Shown here: positions 5,152 through 43,947 of the stretch, one piece after another
How positions within the stretch are numbered: position 1 is the stretch's first letter
How the letters are laid out: every line of letters begins with the position of its first letter
Assembly: GCF_013122565.1 (NCBI RefSeq)
Contig: NZ_CP053258.1
Length of the DNA: 64,000 nt
Strand: one strand, 5' to 3'
From: Escherichia coli
GTDB taxonomy: Bacteria; Pseudomonadota; Gammaproteobacteria; Enterobacterales; Enterobacteriaceae
The notes under the pieces: generated by a model
Database searches by the model: none
What the model was told of the DNA's origin: nothing
The model's input: only the letters and a program-made list of their open reading frames with translations
Translations under genes and position numbers: made by a program

Positions 5152-8001
5152 TTGAAATACCTTGCTTCTTTTCGTACAACCCTGAAAGCCTCGCGCTACA
5201 TGTTCAGAGCATTGGCGTTAGTGCTCTGGCTGTTGATTGCTTTTTCATCCGTTTTTTACATCGTTAATGCGTTACATCAGCGAGAATCGGAAATTCGTCA
5301 GGAATTTAATCTGAGTTCCGATCAGGCTCAGCGCTTTATTCAACGCACCTCTGATGTGATGAAAGAGCTGAAGTACATCGCTGAAAATCGCTTATCGGTA
5401 GAAAACGGTGTGCTTTCCCCGCGTGGACGAGAAACGCAGGCAGATGTGCCTGCGTTTGAACCGCTGTTTGCCGACTCCGATTGTTCCGCAATGAGTAACA
5501 CCTGGCGAGGTTCTCTGGAGTCATTGGCGTGGTTTATGCGCTACTGGCGCGATAATTTTTCTGCGGCTTACGATCTCAACCGGGTATTTTTAATCGGCAG
5601 CGATAACCTCTGCATGGCCAATTTCGGTCTGCGTGATATGCCAGTGGAACGCGATACCGCGTTGAAAGCTTTGCATGAACGCATCAATAAATATCGAAAT
5701 GCACCACAAGATGATAGCGGCAGTAACCTCTACTGGATCAGCGAAGGTCCGCGCCCTGGCGTCGGGTATTTTTACGCGTTGACGCCAGTTTATCTGGCGA
5801 ACCGGTTGCAGGCGCTTTTGGGTGTCGAGCAAACCATCCGGATGGAGAACTTTTTCTTACCGGGTACGTTGCCGATGGGGGTTACCATTCTTGATGAAAA
5901 TGGTCATACCCTGATTTCGCTTACCGGACCAGAAAGCAAAATTAAGGGCGATCCTCGCTGGATGCAGGAACGCTCCTGGTTTGGCTATACGGAAGGGTTC
6001 CGGGAGCTGGTGCTGAAGAAAAATCTGCCACCCTCATCGCTAAGCATCGTGTATTCGGTGCCGGTTGATAAGGTGCTGGAACGCATTCGCATGTTGATCC
6101 TTAACGCAATTTTGCTGAATGTGCTTGCCGGAGCTGCATTGTTTACTCTCGCGCGGATGTACGAGCGACGTATTTTCATTCCGGCGGAAAGCGACGCCCT
6201 GCGACTGGAAGAACATGAGCAGTTCAATCGCAAGATTGTCGCCTCCGCGCCAGTGGGTATCTGCATTTTGCGTACCGCTGATGGCGTCAATATTTTAAGT
6301 AACGAACTGGCGCATACCTATCTCAATATGCTTACGCATGAGGACCGCCAACGACTGACGCAAATTATCTGTGGGCAGCAGGTCAATTTTGTTGATGTCC
6401 TGACCAGCAACAATACCAATCTGCAAATCAGCTTCGTCCATTCGCGCTATCGTAATGAAAACGTGGCCATTTGTGTGCTGGTGGATGTTTCTTCGCGCGT
6501 GAAGATGGAAGAGTCGTTGCAGGAGATGGCACAAGCAGCGGAACAGGCGAGCCAGTCAAAATCGATGTTCCTTGCCACCGTCAGTCATGAGCTGCGAACG
6601 CCGCTGTATGGCATTATCGGTAACCTGGATCTTTTGCAAACCAAAGAGTTACCGAAAGGCGTCGATCGTCTGGTGACGGCAATGAACAACTCTTCCAGCC
6701 TGTTGTTGAAAATTATCAGCGATATTCTCGATTTCTCGAAGATTGAATCGGAACAGTTGAAGATCGAACCGCGTGAGTTTTCACCGCGTGAAGTGATGAA
6801 CCACATCACCGCCAACTATTTACCGCTGGTGGTACGCAAGCAGTTAGGCTTGTACTGCTTTATTGAACCGGATGTGCCAGTGGCCTTAAATGGCGACCCG
6901 ATGCGTTTACAGCAGGTCATCTCCAACCTGTTGAGTAACGCCATAAAATTCACCGATACCGGCTGTATAGTTTTGCATGTCCGCGCTGATGGCGATTATC
7001 TCTCTATCCGTGTTCGCGATACCGGCGTGGGGATCCCGGCGAAAGAAGTGGTGCGCTTGTTTGATCCCTTCTTCCAGGTCGGAACGGGCGTACAGCGAAA
7101 CTTCCAGGGGACCGGTCTGGGTCTGGCGATTTGTGAAAAACTGATCAGCATGATGGACGGCGACATCTCGGTAGATTCAGAACCGGGAATGGGCAGCCAG
7201 TTTACCGTGCGTATTCCGTTGTACGGCGCTCAGTACCCGCAGAAAAAAGGCGTGGAAGGGTTGAGTGGTAAACGCTGCTGGCTGGCGGTCCGCAATGCGT
7301 CACTCTGTCAGTTCCTGGAAACCAGTTTGCAGCGCAGCGGCATCGTCGTAACAACATACGAAGGGCAGGAACCGACTCCCGAAGATGTGTTAATCACTGA
7401 CGAGGTAGTGAGTAAAAAATGGCAGGGCAGAGCGGTAGTGACCTTCTGTCGTCGACATATTGGTATTCCGCTGGAGAAAGCGCCAGGGGAGTGGGTACAC
7501 AGTGTGGCTGCTCCGCATGAGCTACCGGCATTGTTGGCGCGTATTTATTTGATCGAGATGGAGAGCGACGATCCTGCTAACGCTCTGCCGTCGACGGACA
7601 AAGCGGTCAGCGATAATGACGATATGATGTTTCTGGTCGTGGATGATCATCCGATTAACCGACGTCTGCTGGCAGATCAGTTGGGATCGTTGGGCTATCA
7701 ATGTAAAACCGCGAATGATGGCGTCGATGCGCTTAATGTACTTAGCAAGAATCATATTGATATCGTGCTTAGCGACGTCAACATGCCAAATATGGATGGT
7801 TACCGCTTGACGCAACGCATTCGTCAGTTGGGACTGACGTTGCCGGTAATCGGAGTAACTGCTAATGCGTTGGCTGAAGAGAAGCAGCGGTGTCTGGAGT
7901 CCGGTATGGACAGCTGCCTGTCGAAGCCGGTAACGCTGGATGTGATAAAACAGACGCTGACGGTATATGCCGAGAGGGTCAGGAAATCGCGGGAATCGTA
8001 G
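5152..8001 (+). CDS. rcsC: hybrid sensor histidine kinase RcsC (949 aa)
   Basis: 949-aa ORF starting MKYLASFRTTLK (TTG start), HisKA (SHELRTPL), HATPase and C-terminal receiver domain (VVDDHPINRRL). Confidence 0.95.
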   Translation: MKYLASFRTTLKASRYMFRALALVLWLLIAFSSVFYIVNALHQRESEIRQEFNLSSDQAQRFIQRTSDVMKELKYIAENRLSVENGVLSPRGRETQADVPAFEPLFADSDCSAMSNTWRGSLESLAWFMRYWRDNFSAAYDLNRVFLIGSDNLCMANFGLRDMPVERDTALKALHERINKYRNAPQDDSGSNLYWISEGPRPGVGYFYALTPVYLANRLQALLGVEQTIRMENFFLPGTLPMGVTILDENGHTLISLTGPESKIKGDPRWMQERSWFGYTEGFRELVLKKNLPPSSLSIVYSVPVDKVLERIRMLILNAILLNVLAGAALFTLARMYERRIFIPAESDALRLEEHEQFNRKIVASAPVGICILRTADGVNILSNELAHTYLNMLTHEDRQRLTQIICGQQVNFVDVLTSNNTNLQISFVHSRYRNENVAICVLVDVSSRVKMEESLQEMAQAAEQASQSKSMFLATVSHELRTPLYGIIGNLDLLQTKELPKGVDRLVTAMNNSSSLLLKIISDILDFSKIESEQLKIEPREFSPREVMNHITANYLPLVVRKQLGLYCFIEPDVPVALNGDPMRLQQVISNLLSNAIKFTDTGCIVLHVRADGDYLSIRVRDTGVGIPAKEVVRLFDPFFQVGTGVQRNFQGTGLGLAICEKLISMMDGDISVDSEPGMGSQFTVRIPLYGAQYPQKKGVEGLSGKRCWLAVRNASLCQFLETSLQRSGIVVTTYEGQEPTPEDVLITDEVVSKKWQGRAVVTFCRRHIGIPLEKAPGEWVHSVAAPHELPALLARIYLIEMESDDPANALPSTDKAVSDNDDMMFLVVDDHPINRRLLADQLGSLGYQCKTANDGVDALNVLSKNHIDIVLSDVNMPNMDGYRLTQRIRQLGLTLPVIGVTANALAEEKQRCLESGMDSCLSKPVTLDVIKQTLTVYAERVRKSRES

Positions 8002-8210
8002 GACGGATAAGGTGTTTATGCCGCATCTGGCATTCAGTGCAAATGCCAGATGCGACGCTGACGCGTCTTATCTGGCCTACTTTAATGTAATCTGTTGAAA
8101 TAATGGGAATCGTAGGACGGATAAGGCGTTTACGCCGCATCCGGCAATCGGTGCAAATGCCAGATAAGACACTAACTAGTCTTATCTGGCCTACATCTGG
8201 CCTACAGATG
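7988..8210. repeat. REP/BIME element: two ~100-bp direct copies each containing REP palindromes (gtaggacggataagg...gccgcatccggca, cagataagac...gtcttatctg)
   Basis: direct repeat 7990-8090 vs 8103-8200 read in sequence; convergent rcsC/rcsB 3' ends. Confidence 0.85.
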
Positions 8211-8211
8211 A

Positions 8212-8862
8212 TTAGTCTTTATCTGCCGGACTTAAGGTCACAGAAGAGAGATAATTCAGCAGGGCGATATCGTTCTCGACACCCAGCTTCATCATCGCAG
8301 ATTTCTTCTGGCTACTGATGGTTTTAATACTGCGGTTCAGCTTTTTAGCGATCTCGGTCACCAGGAAGCCTTCCGCAAACAGGCGCAGAACTTCACTCTC
8401 TTTTGGCGAGAGACGCTTGTCACCGTAACCACCAGCACTGATTTTTTCCAACAGGCGAGAAACGCTTTCCGGGGTAAATTTCTTCCCTTTCTGCAGCGCG
8501 GCGAGAGCTTTCGGCAGATCGGTCGGTGCACCTTGTTTCAGCACGATCCCTTCAATATCCAGATCCAATACCGCACTAAGAATCGCCGGGTTGTTGTTCA
8601 TAGTCAGAACAATGATCGACAGGCTTGGGAAATGGCGCTTGATGTACTTGATTAAGGTAATACCATCGCCGTACTTATCGCCAGGCATGGAGAGATCGGT
8701 AATCAACACATGCGCATCCAGTTTCGGCAGGTTGTTGATCAGTGCTGTAGAGTCTTCAAATTCGCCGACAACATTCACCCACTCAATTTGCTCAAGTGAT
8801 TTGCGAATACCGAACAAGACTATCGGATGGTCATCGGCAATAATTACGTTCATATTGTTCAT
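8212..8862 (-). CDS. rcsB: response regulator RcsB (216 aa)
   Basis: ORF contains MNNMNVIIADDHPIVLFGIR; LuxR-type HTH C-terminus; start trimmed from 231-aa track ORF to the MNNMNV methionine. Confidence 0.95.
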   Translation of the reverse strand: MNNMNVIIADDHPIVLFGIRKSLEQIEWVNVVGEFEDSTALINNLPKLDAHVLITDLSMPGDKYGDGITLIKYIKRHFPSLSIIVLTMNNNPAILSAVLDLDIEGIVLKQGAPTDLPKALAALQKGKKFTPESVSRLLEKISAGGYGDKRLSPKESEVLRLFAEGFLVTEIAKKLNRSIKTISSQKKSAMMKLGVENDIALLNYLSSVTLSPADKD

Positions 8863-11862: not shown

Positions 11863-11956
11863 AAAAAAAAACCGGATGCGAGGCATCCGGTTGAAATAGG
11901 GGTAAACAGACATTCAGAAATGAATGACGGTAATAAATAAAGTTAATGATGATAGC
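11863..11956 (-). ncRNA. micF: MicF antisense sRNA
   Basis: reverse complement of 11863-11956 reads gctatcatcattaactttatttattaccgtcattcatttctgaatgtctgtttacccctatttcaaccggatgcctcgcatccggtttttttt; divergent from ompC; intrinsic terminator hairpin plus U-run. Confidence 0.95.
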
Positions 11957-12104
11957 GGGAGTTATTCTAGTTGCGAGTGAAGGTTTTGTTTTGACATTCA
12001 GTGCTGTCAAATACTTAAGAATAAGTTATTGATTTTAACCTTGAATTATTATTGCTTGATGTTAGGTGCTTATTTCGCCATTCCACAATAATCTTAAAAA
12101 GTTC

Positions 12105-19934: not shown

Positions 19935-20300
19935 ATGTGCCACATCCGGCATGGTATGCCGGATGTGGCGTATGCTGATAAGACGCGCCAGCGTCGCATC
20001 AGGCAACCGGCTTGGGTGTTAGATGTCGGATGCGGCGTAACCGACTTATTCGACCTACGGGGTGGAGCACTTCACAGCGGTGTAGGCCTGATAAGACGCG
20101 TCAGCGTCGCATCAGGCAACCGGCTCGGACGTTGGATGTCGGATGCGGCGTAACCGCCTTATCCGACCTACGGGGTGGAGCACTTCACAGCGGTGTAGGC
20201 CTGATAACACGCGTCAGCGTCGCATCAGGCAACCGGCTCGGGCGTTAGATGTCGGATGCGGCGTGACCGCTTTATCCAACCTACGGGGTGCCGCACTTCA
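19935..20300. repeat. tandem array (about 3 copies, 113-bp period) of a REP-containing unit (BIME-like)
   Basis: ataagacgcg[c/t]cagcgtcgcatcaggcaaccgg recurs at 19978, 20091 and 20204 (period 113 bp); palindromic ggatgtcggatgcggcgtaaccg units. Confidence 0.9.
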
Positions 20301-37037: not shown

Positions 37038-37114
37038 TGGTCGGCACGAGAGGATTTGAACCTCCGACCCCCGACACCCCATGACGGTGCGCTACCAGGC
37101 TGCGCTACGTGCCG
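37038..37114 (-). tRNA. proL: tRNA-Pro (GGG anticodon), 77 nt including CCA
   Basis: reverse complement reads CGGCACGTAGCGCAGCCTGGTAGCGCACCGTCATGGGGTGTCGGGGGTCGGAGGTTCAAATCCTCTCGTGCCGACCA. Confidence 0.93.

Positions 37115-43554: not shown

Positions 43555-43947
<393 letters not shown>

Follow-up and report, generated by a model that had tools for sequence, protein, structure and literature searches.

Genes and repeats at the rcsC-rcsB locus

The window, which is the whole 64-kb stretch of E. coli DNA analysed here (64,000 nt of contig NZ_CP053258.1), contains the converging genes rcsC and rcsB, and the 210-bp gap between them (8002-8211) carries four palindromic REP sequences (Table 1). The 3' 1.6 kb of rcsC in the window was 98.6-99.2% identical to that of E. 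coli strains, and rcsB in the K-12 RefSeq record was 651 nt long and ended 199 bp from rcsC. Among 5,426 genomes, the best full-length identity to the gap query was 96.7%.

A 22-mer, GGGAATCGTAGGACGGATAAGG, was found exactly twice in the whole window (0 expected from shuffles), at 7991-8012 and 8105-8126. An earlier note on this DNA had reported the same pair at 7990-8011 and 8103-8124, so that the count was right and the positions differed by 1 and 2 nt from those given here; the first copy spanned the rcsC stop codon, as had been stated. Aligned in register, the repeat was 98 nt long (7983-8080 versus 8097-8194) with 86% identity and a period of 114. Each copy held two REP palindromes in inverted orientation, and both copies took up the gap as far as the rcsB stop codon, in agreement with the description of two direct repeats of about 100 bp in the note. 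The note had also considered that the repeat might start only after the stop codon of rcsC. This was not the case, since the in-register repeat began 16 nt 5' of the stop codon, where homology between the copies broke off sharply at 7983, and the exact 22-mer began 8 nt before it. All four REP stems were inside the gap, and the overlap with rcsC was limited to 4 nt, the GTAG (7998-8001) with which the first REP begins. The 11-bp microduplication ATCTGGCCTAC was specific to the window and was absent from 7/7 other aligned E. coli alleles.

Table 1. Coordinates of genes and sequence features at the rcsC-rcsB locus in the window
Feature	Position	Strand	Evidence and remarks
rcsC CDS	5152..8001	+	ORF list and translation; 949 aa, tail ...YAERVRKSRES, TAG 7999-8001; all matching E. 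coli records annotate it as rcsC
Last 15 nt of rcsC before GTAG, GAAATCGCGGGAATC	7983..7997	+	In-register match to 8097-8111; source of the 'pseudo-tail' from the alignment
Y-type REP 1	7998..8031	+	REP pattern search; GTAG 7998-8001 is last base of Ser949 codon plus TAG; stem from 8002
BIME-2 unit 1	8001..8077	+	Full-length Rfam RF02564 (naRNA4) match
Z2-type REP 1, CCTAC at end	8045..8080	+	Inverted repeat; hairpin -21.4 kcal/mol, z -6.4; Rfam hairpin 2
16-nt spacer TTTAATGTAATCTGTT, left half of inter-unit linker	8081..8096	+	Only at rcsC-rcsB locus
'Pseudo-tail' GAAATAATGGGAATC, diverged copy of rcsC 3' end, right half of linker	8097..8111	+	In-register match to rcsC tail
Y-type REP 2	8112..8145	+	Exact REP-pattern match; hairpin -14.4 kcal/mol; Rfam alignment
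BIME-2 unit 2	8115..8191	+	Full-length Rfam RF02564 (naRNA4) match
Z2-type REP 2, CCTAC at end	8159..8194	+	Inverted repeat; hairpin -20.1 kcal/mol, z -7.9; Rfam alignment
11-bp tandem microduplication ATCTGGCCTAC x2	8184..8205	+	Tandem Repeats Finder; 3' arm and tail of last REP
rcsB CDS	8212..8862	-	ORF list; TAA 8212-8214, tail ...VTLSPADKD; start 8862 inferred from K-12 length

The gap is filled by a BIME-2 cluster

The REP pattern matched four times in the gap and 10 times in the window, against 0.39 expected, and a 361-bp query matched 26 places in the median E. coli genome, which reflects the dispersal of REPs. The four copies in the gap were imperfect palindromes of about 35 nt with the conserved GTAG/CTAC end, the first one being degraded. 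BIME-2 elements, as described by Gilson, Bachellier, Hofnung and colleagues, consist of alternating Y and Z2 REPs. Both units of the gap aligned with the Y+Z2 covariance model of Rfam RF02564 (naRNA4) over model positions 1-77/77, scoring 66.7 bits for unit 1 and 66.2 bits for unit 2 with a gathering score of 59.5 bits, and the alignment placed hairpin 1 of unit 1 at 8002-8031. The two-hairpin naRNA unit is known to be composed of one Z2 and one Y palindromic unit (bioRxiv 10.64898/2026.03.23.713779). Tandem amplification with a variable number of units was also found (period 114; gaps of 85, 199 and 313 bp). BIME-1, which has an IHF site in its linker, was ruled out, as the IHF consensus WATCAANNNNTTR had no match in 7980-8215. 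No REP features are listed in the copy of the K-12 RefSeq record that was used.

The region is thus a BIME-2 cluster of two units, each a Y-REP plus a Z2-REP, in the 3' untranslated gap common to the converging rcsC and rcsD-rcsB transcripts. Its alternating inverted palindromes, the GTAG/CTAC end of each, the tandem amplification of the Y-Z2 unit with strain-variable number, the position between converging genes and the lack of an IHF site are all those of BIME-2. It differs in that the amplified unit includes about 15 nt of the 3' end of a neighbouring gene, in that the linker is specific to the locus, and in that the Z2 stems read CCAG/CTGG, whereas the usual ones read CCTG/CAGG. It is an ordinary element of an already catalogued kind, since its first REP copy has in common with rcsC only the last codon and the stop.

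Predicted RNA structures of the gap

The REP hairpins, which the earlier note had put forward for folding, gave strong predicted folds of the gap on both strands (z about -7). As RNA, 7996-8082 formed a single long hairpin (-44.3 kcal/mol, z -7.1) in which GUAGG pairs with CCUAC, and this long hairpin of Y with Z2 was the stable structure at the first REP; the isolated Y-type REP 1 hairpin of the window was weak (-8.3 kcal/mol, z -0.4). The other three of the four REP hairpins ranged from -14 to -21 kcal/mol. The rcsC stop codon was located inside the GTAG of the first REP and was paired in the predicted stem. An intrinsic terminator in the gap was rejected, as no canonical one was detected and the sole candidate was a weak hairpin at 8194-8210. 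That hairpin takes in the 11-bp duplication and is specific to the window. In REP-free relatives, the corresponding rcsC-rcsB gap contained a hairpin with an A-run on one side and a T-run on the other.

Origin of Ser949 and the TAG stop codon

The E. coli REP consensus runs ...GGCCTACGA, which is TCGTAGG on the opposite strand, and ends ...CCTACGA (PMC12306157). It covered exactly the TCG of Ser949 and the TAG of rcsC, and the six extra bases were identical to the consensus extension. The remaining repeated stretch (GAAAT...GGGAA) was rcsC coding sequence, aligning with the coding tails of REP-free genera. In this way, the claim of the earlier note that the end of rcsC lies in the repeat held for the overlap itself, in which TCG-TAG is REP, and failed for the rest, which is gene sequence. 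The tail codons were AAA TCG CGG GAA in E. coli versus AAG TCG CGG GAA in Kluyvera, AAA ACG CGG GGA in Citrobacter and AAA ACG CGG GCA in Salmonella. The RcsC tails of Salmonella (KTRA-TAA), Citrobacter (KTRG-TAA), Klebsiella (KGRE), Kluyvera (KSRE-TAA), Enterobacter and Cronobacter were all one residue shorter, and those relatives seen as DNA stopped at TAA; the matches from the RcsC protein search were short fragments. These results suggested that rcsC of the Escherichia lineage probably gained one Ser codon and a new stop from the REP, which is the most economical reading because the consensus covers TCG-TAG and the close relatives end one codon earlier. A divergent Escherichia lineage (L008, rcsC 91.7% identical) already carried both a REP at its rcsC stop and a linker with the pseudo-tail; it was the one non-coli Escherichia lineage among the matches listed in the genome-collection scan, E. 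albertii and E. fergusonii not being among those matches.

Alternatively, the ...RES-TAG end of rcsC could be ancestral, the REP pair having been inserted or selected at an existing GTAG without any coding contribution, and the overlap would then be coincidental. REP-free Pseudocitrobacter ends in GAG TCG TAG GAT... or GAG TCG TAA (L014, L020), and three Erwinia species end in RES with other codons and TGA, so that a 949-residue tail could be ancestral; moreover, relatives of the REP-associated transposase insert beside a specific short target sequence. However, the nearer groups sampled (Salmonella, three Citrobacter species, Klebsiella, Kluyvera, Enterobacter and Cronobacter) are all shorter by one residue, so several independent losses would be required, and the exact equality of the six extra bases with the consensus extension also speaks against a coincidence. 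We therefore regard an ancestral tail as somewhat unlikely.

Addition of the codon by the REP is preferred. The REP pair of Salmonella and Citrobacter belongs to the same REP superfamily and occupies the same rcsC-rcsB gap. Differently, its REPs are arranged tail to tail (...CCTAC - linker - GTAGG...), they start 3-4 nt or more past the TAA of an RcsC one residue shorter, and no part of the gene tail is repeated.

Growth of the cluster and variation of the RcsC tail

Alleles of one to three units, and probably four, were found, about 18% with one unit, about 81% with two and under 1% with more; gaps of 85, 199 and 313 bp corresponded to one, two and three units. Of 5,426 genomes, 4,436 had the 40-nt linker, at one place in the median genome and in the rcsC-rcsB gap in every case. 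It occurred 0-3 times per genome, with none in 990 genomes and two or three copies in a few. The one-unit allele was a hybrid with the left part of unit 1 and the right part of unit 2, joined within the common GTGCAAATGCCAGAT. A simple 114-bp tandem duplication was rejected, since the 16-nt spacer at 8081-8096 resembled neither flank in register (3/16 versus rcsC and 6/16 versus the sequence after the last CCTAC). A resemblance of the spacer to the Citrobacter tail-to-tail linker (ATGTA..AT..CTGT) was seen by eye and was too weak to use.

A course of events consistent with these alignments would begin in an Escherichia ancestor, in which rcsC codon 948 came to be directly followed by a REP pair. 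The conserved TCGTAGG end of this pair would then have supplied the extra Ser codon and TAG, replacing the TAA of the sister genera. Later, a 98-nt segment with the last ~15 nt of rcsC and the REP pair may have been copied 16 nt downstream to form unit 2, and the linker would thereby have received its non-coding 'pseudo-tail'. Finally, the alleles of one, two, three and probably four units could have come about by unequal recombination of the units, with the gene untouched. This differs from the mobile REPIN/RAYT doublet, as the whole unit with its flanks was not found at other loci and only the REPs themselves are dispersed.

The earlier note had gone further and proposed that the repeat, as a mobile-type element, is a source of strain-to-strain variation in the RcsC tail. 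This was not confirmed. Comparison of rcsC 3' ends among E. coli strains revealed no variation in length, rcsC being 2,850 nt in 7/7 E. coli loci fetched, including one-, two- and three-unit alleles, and 5,418 of 5,426 genomes carried a 39-mer over the tail and stop. A single difference was common, a point change with E948 (GAA) in 64% of genomes (3,480) versus D948 (GAT) in 35% (1,905), at a position immediately outside the REP consensus. Its origin by gene conversion, with the pseudo-tail of the linker and the tail of rcsC as partners, was rejected, because GAA is nearly fixed in the linker (a GAT query revealed 1 exception among 4,436 genomes), which argues against conversion from the linker. 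The outgroup lineage L008 carries GAA in rcsC, so that D948 seems to be the derived state and the result of a simple point change.

A mobile REP-type repeat including GGGAATC that supplied the last codons (SRES) of rcsC and drove such variation is therefore decidedly unlikely and, beyond TCG-TAG, largely refuted. It would accord with the start of the exact and in-register repeats 8 and 16 nt before the stop codon, with the REP consensus over TCG-TAG (PMC12306157), with the differences in unit number among strains, and with rare database fragments that read on into the REPs through frameshift or stop loss (P0002, P0005, P0034, P0057). Against it, the read-through variants are all singletons and possibly sequencing errors, the K-S-R-E coding sequence aligns with REP-free genera, the linker of the second copy occurs only at rcsC-rcsB while other REPs share only ATC before GTAGG, rcsC keeps its length whatever the unit number from one to three, and the E948/D948 change is a point change outside the consensus.

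The pseudo-tail as a copy of the gene end

Upstream of TCGTAGG, 10 of 13 nt agreed between the rcsC tail and the pseudo-tail (p about 1e-4 at fixed register), and in the 16 nt farther upstream only 3/16 agreed. The flanks at other REP loci had at most ATC before GTAGG in common, and the linker of the second BIME cluster of the window was unrelated. On these alignments rcsC is the source and the intergenic pseudo-tail the derivative, as the tail aligns with REP-free genera and the linker is found only at the rcsC-rcsB locus. The idea that the linker is a generic motif dispersed with BIMEs was rejected at the available search sensitivity, BLAST on 28 Gb missing strongly diverged copies of a 15-nt motif, on the grounds that it is restricted to this locus and that the linker of the other cluster is unrelated.

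It is highly improbable that the likeness of tail and linker arose by chance or from a generic flank motif of BIMEs and not from a copied gene end: the agreement beyond TCGTAGG is only 10/13 and much-diverged 15-nt copies would escape BLAST, but the fixed-register probability is low, the flanks elsewhere and the other cluster offer no such motif, and the pairing is retained in the lineage that is 8% diverged, L008 (GAAATCGCGGGAATC versus GAAGTAATGGGATTC).

REP325 (yjdM-yjdN), from which the naRNA4 family was described (PMC4550694), shares with both rcsC-rcsB units the 77 aligned model positions and the two-hairpin structure. It differs in having six units between genes in tandem instead of two units between converging genes, the spacer between the hairpins of the rcsC-rcsB units departs from the model consensus, and the HU/nucleoid role proposed for REP325 is disputed (bioRxiv 10.64898/2026.03.23.713779). 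That both units are genes for naRNA4-like nucleoid-associated RNAs, which with HU would bridge DNA cruciforms and aid chromosome compaction, is very improbable in spite of scores above the curated Rfam threshold across the full model, as the model in effect fits any Y+Z2 REP pair, with a third match in the unrelated cluster at 20085-20168, and REP325 and naRNA4 were reported to act without measurable nucleoid compaction, as a local terminator and stabiliser instead (bioRxiv 10.64898/2026.03.23.713779).

Possible function at the 3' ends of rcsC and rcsB

Taken as a whole, a BIME-2 cluster with a putatively REP-supplied Ser949 and stop codon, local copying and a presumptive role at 3' ends is, with good confidence, the best explanation of the locus. 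REPs have been described as terminator-stabilisers that raise the expression of convergent gene pairs (bioRxiv 10.64898/2026.03.23.713779). By analogy, the cluster is likely a two-way 3'-end element, whose hairpins would attenuate transcription arriving from either side and protect the rcsC and rcsB mRNAs from degradation at the 3' end, and would replace the ordinary bidirectional terminator of REP-free relatives.

As quoted in PMC12306157, REPs located <16 nt from a stop codon lower translation (Liang, Rudd and Deutscher 2015, Mol Cell, with nrdAB as example; also cited in PMC6815119). REPs near a stop codon number 260/496 in the count of Liang et al. or 446/4,072 in that of RepRanger, as both are given in PMC12306157. 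The text of the RepRanger supplement does not mention rcsC, and a literature search on rcsC and REP returned nothing relevant. The first REP stem begins 1 nt after the rcsC stop codon (7999-8001, stem from 8002), within the quoted distance, and on the opposite strand of typical E. coli the GTAGG of the last REP lies 6 nt after the rcsB stop codon in the alignment, which places both rcsC and rcsB in the class of genes with a REP near the stop. Compared to the translation-damping REPs, two differences were found. The rcsC stop codon is itself inside the REP GTAG and paired in the predicted stem, and in the window, as a result of the 11-bp duplication, 17 nt separate the rcsB stop codon from the complete last hairpin. 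Damping of RcsC translation by the REP at its stop is possible by analogy with these cases. In a fuller proposal, which is unlikely, the REP insertion would have added Ser949 and a stop inside a stable RNA stem, and REP-dependent stalling at termination would hold RcsC down. The RcsC:RcsB ratio, and with it the set-point of the Rcs envelope-stress response, would then be tuned by the strain differences in the gap (1-4 units; the 11-bp duplication of the window, with which the distance of the last hairpin from the rcsB stop grows from 6 to 17 nt).

Significance

For E. coli it is already documented that REP/BIME clusters lie between converging genes, vary in unit number and occur close to stop codons, and rcsC-rcsB is one instance. 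It provides a clean case, dated by outgroups, in which a gene probably takes its last codon and its stop from a REP end. The fragment of the gene 3' end that appears to have been carried along in the copying of a REP unit points to cluster growth by local copying and not by transposition of whole units. If REP-at-stop damping applies to rcsC, the arrangement would also be relevant to the way in which the RcsC kinase/phosphatase is kept at its low level.

The rcsC-rcsB gap contains a BIME-2-type cluster

The convergent genes rcsC and rcsB were separated by 210 bp in the window, and the 22-mer GGGAATCGTAGGACGGATAAGG was detected exactly twice, at the rcsC stop (7991-8012) and again in the gap (8105-8126), whereas none was expected by chance. 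Both copies had been claimed by the earlier note, at positions 1 and 2 nt off these, and were borne out. In register, the direct repeat covered 98 nt (7983-8080 versus 8097-8194) with 86% identity and a period of 114; it therefore begins 16 nt 5' of the rcsC stop codon, and not only past it.

Each unit contained two inverted palindromes, one starting with GTAGGACGGATAAGG and the other finishing with CTTATCTGGCCTAC. A REP pattern search of the window returned 10 matches against 0.39 expected, and when the 361-bp region was used as query, 5,425 of the 5,426 complete genomes of E. coli gave matches, with 26 places in the median genome. Units 1 and 2 were aligned with Rfam RF02564 (naRNA4) across 77/77 positions at 66.7 and 66.2 bits (gathering score 59.5 bits). 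This family was derived from the Y+Z2 REP pairs of REP325 (PMC4550694), the six-unit cluster between yjdM and yjdN, and the naRNA4 unit is composed of one Z2 and one Y palindromic unit (bioRxiv 10.64898/2026.03.23.713779). The rcsC-rcsB gap is a two-unit BIME-2-type cluster. No exact match to the IHF consensus was found in the gap; the minus strand of the linker (TTTCAACAGATTA) resembles by eye the IHF core WATCAANNNNTTR with 1 mismatch, a motif whose information is too low to signify.

Strong RNA structure was predicted for the gap whichever strand is transcribed (z -6.9 and -7.2). Unit 1 was predicted to fold into a single long hairpin (-44.3 kcal/mol, z -7.1) with GUAGG 7998-8002 paired to CCUAC 8076-8080, so that the rcsC stop codon lies within the predicted stem; the Rfam alignment places the beginning of the first stem at 8002, 1 nt past the stop. 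The window also contained another BIME cluster, unrelated to this one, in which three units recur with a period of 113 and the linkers are different. The MicF, tRNA and L25 leader matches are as expected for such a part of an E. coli-type chromosome.

Features of the window with their coordinates
Feature	Coordinates	Strand	Remarks
rcsC	5152-8001	+	949 aa, C-terminus ...YAERVRKSRES; TAG stop 7999-8001
REP unit 1	8001-8077		Y-type plus Z2-type REP pair
Linker	8081-8111		16-nt spacer plus pseudo-tail (diverged copy of the rcsC 3' end)
Second copy of rcsC tail, GAAATAATGGGAA	8097-8109		inside the inter-unit linker
REP unit 2	8115-8191		Y-type plus Z2-type REP pair
11-bp microduplication, ATCTGGCCTAC	8184-8205
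rcsB	stop 8212-8214	-	converges with rcsC
MicF RNA	11864-11957	-	Rfam gathering-level match
Second BIME cluster	19940-20300
Unit of second BIME cluster	20085-20168	-	75.3 bits against Rfam naRNA4
tRNA	37041-37114	-	Rfam gathering-level match
L25 ribosomal-protein leader	43861-43886	-	Rfam gathering-level match

The REP probably supplies one codon and the stop of rcsC

The earlier note proposed that the REP supplies the last rcsC codons; this probably holds for TCG (Ser949) and the stop TAG, but not for anything upstream of them. On the opposite strand, the E. coli REP consensus given in PMC12306157, GCCGGATGCGGCGTGAACGCCTTATCCGGCCTACGA, opens with TCGTAGG, which spans Ser949 TCG and TAG but no base before them. 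The 5' part of the repeat, GAAATCGCGGGAA, is ordinary rcsC coding sequence and aligned codon by codon with the rcsC tails of genera without REP at the stop; the tails read AAG TCG CGG GAA TAA in Kluyvera, AAA ACG CGG GGA TAA in Citrobacter, AAA ACG CGG GCA TAA in Salmonella and AAA ACG CGG ACG TAA in Enterobacter.

Beyond TCGTAGG, the rcsC tail and the linker were identical at 10 of 13 positions (fixed-register p ~1e-4), and over a further 16 nt upstream at only 3, so the homology stops sharply at 7983. A 40-nt linker query was found in 4,436 of the 5,426 genomes, typically (median) at a single place in each and never on a plasmid, and with a 30-nt query of pseudo-tail plus REP start, other loci had at most ATC before GTAGG in common. 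Because the tail aligns with REP-free genera, the linker is locus-specific and the homology has its edge at 7983, these comparisons identify rcsC as the source and the linker copy as the derivative. Judged from the alignments, the repeat represents local copying of "gene end + REP pair", not a codon-bringing mobile unit.

Origin of Ser949 and the stop codon

RcsC was one residue shorter in Salmonella (KTRA), Citrobacter (KTRG, NARG), Klebsiella (KGRE), Kluyvera (KSRE), Enterobacter (KTRT, KTRV and others) and Cronobacter (KTRG), and the shorter tails available as DNA stopped with TAA. Escherichia rcsC has six additional bases, TCGTAG, which are the REP consensus extension. We infer that Ser949 and the stop were probably added by the REP. 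That the RES tail is ancestral and the REP landed on it seems unlikely, and is kept in consideration because Pseudocitrobacter rcsC ends with GAG TCG TAG or TCG TAA where REP is absent, and because RES tails with different codons occur in several Erwinia species. In the Pseudocitrobacter loci (L014, L020), GAG TCG TAG GATAAAAAAATCCCC or TCG TAA was followed by an ordinary terminator hairpin; the last codon and stop shared with Escherichia may be coincidence, convergence or a REP remnant.

Whether Ser949 was added by the REP, as we prefer, or was ancestral, the arrangement is old, because in locus L008, labelled E. coli and with rcsC 91.7% identical to that of the window, the REP was already fused to the stop and the linker also contained the pseudo-tail (GAAGTAATGGGATTC). 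Since rcsC was only 91.7% identical, L008 (strain SCPM-O-B-8794, contig NZ_JAATUR010000027.1) is likely a different Escherichia species. Of its second unit, a single perfect hairpin was left, GTAGGCCAGATAAGGCATTCGGCACTTATCTGGCCTGC, and the C-terminus of its RcsB was DKE rather than DKD. REPs were also present in the gap of Salmonella and Citrobacter (L087, 310-411; L009, L012 and L065, downstream of ~1594), but there the two form a tail-to-tail pair (...CCTAC - linker - GTAGG...) starting after a TAA stop, which indicates that in sister genera REPs settled in this gap in a different way, or that the gap was rearranged.

Variation between strains

The two-unit allele (gap 199 bp) was that of K-12 and the majority of strains, while one unit (85 bp) was found in locus L002 and three units (313 bp) in L003. 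The linker was missing in 990 of 5,426 genomes (~18%) and reached a maximum of three per genome, with 35 extra places overall. The one-unit allele was a hybrid, with CATTCAG of unit 1 on the left, AAGACACTAAC of unit 2 on the right and the junction within the common GTGCAAATGCCAGAT, which is what unequal recombination between units would give; it is probably derived, given the presence of more than one unit in the outgroup lineage.

The cluster had also been suggested as a plausible source of variation between strains in the RcsC tail. The length of rcsC was 2,850 nt in 7/7 E. coli loci fetched, and a 39-mer spanning tail and stop was present in 5,418 of 5,426 genomes. Residue 948 was GAA (E948, window) in 3,480 genomes and GAT (D948, K-12) in 1,905, a point change one base beyond the REP consensus. 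Conversion from the linker copy does not account for D948, since this copy was GAA in nearly all genomes. A few database RcsC fragments ran on into the REPs via frameshift or stop loss, all singletons. With the length constant, the point change outside the REP and the run-ons singletons, the cluster is no real source of RcsC tail diversity. The run-on fragments P0002, P0005, P0034 and P0057 (frameshift or TAG-to-Tyr, e.g. ...KSRDSYGRIRRF..., ...KSGIVGRIRRLRRI...) may reflect either errors in sequencing or genuine read-through alleles.

In the last REP of the window, the loop 8173-8176 was CTAG instead of CGCG, and neither this loop nor the 11-bp duplication was found in the 7 other alleles aligned; the best match of any complete E. 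coli genome to the region was 96.7%. With the duplication, the distance between the rcsB stop and the complete last REP hairpin grows from 6 to 17 nt, and part of a small new hairpin (8194-8210) falls inside the duplicated stretch.

Proposed function and significance

In REP-free relatives (Enterobacter, AAAAAGGCCCGCAAGGGCCTTTTTT; Citrobacter sp. FP75; Pseudocitrobacter), the gap held a hairpin with A-run and T-run flanks, interpreted as a bidirectional intrinsic terminator. In the window's gap, no intrinsic terminator was detected except one weak hairpin overlapping the private 11-bp duplication. REP325 has been reported as a terminator, partly Rho-dependent, and a stabiliser of upstream mRNA; of the REPs in E. 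coli, about 60% are located between convergent genes, those pairs are more highly expressed, and 78 REPs lie inside predicted bidirectional terminators (bioRxiv 10.64898/2026.03.23.713779). On the simplest reading, the cluster would form and protect the 3' ends of the rcsC and rcsD-rcsB transcripts. REPs <16 nt from a stop codon reduce translation of the upstream gene via ribosome stalling, according to the summary of Liang et al. 2015 in PMC12306157; that study is also cited in PMC6815119. The distance was 1 nt at rcsC and, from alignment, 6 nt at rcsB of typical E. coli, both inside this range, and such damping may act in addition at the two genes.

REPs, BIME-2 clusters, strain differences in unit number and REPs at stop codons as a class (260 of 496 or 446 of 4,072 REPs, depending on the count, as cited in PMC12306157) are all established, and the rcsC-rcsB cluster is an ordinary example of them in a genome that has been catalogued in depth. 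The K-12 RefSeq record consulted lists no repeat features. What is added is modest: a case, dated by outgroups, in which the end of a REP provides the last codon and stop of a gene, and a gene-tail fragment carried along during unit copying.
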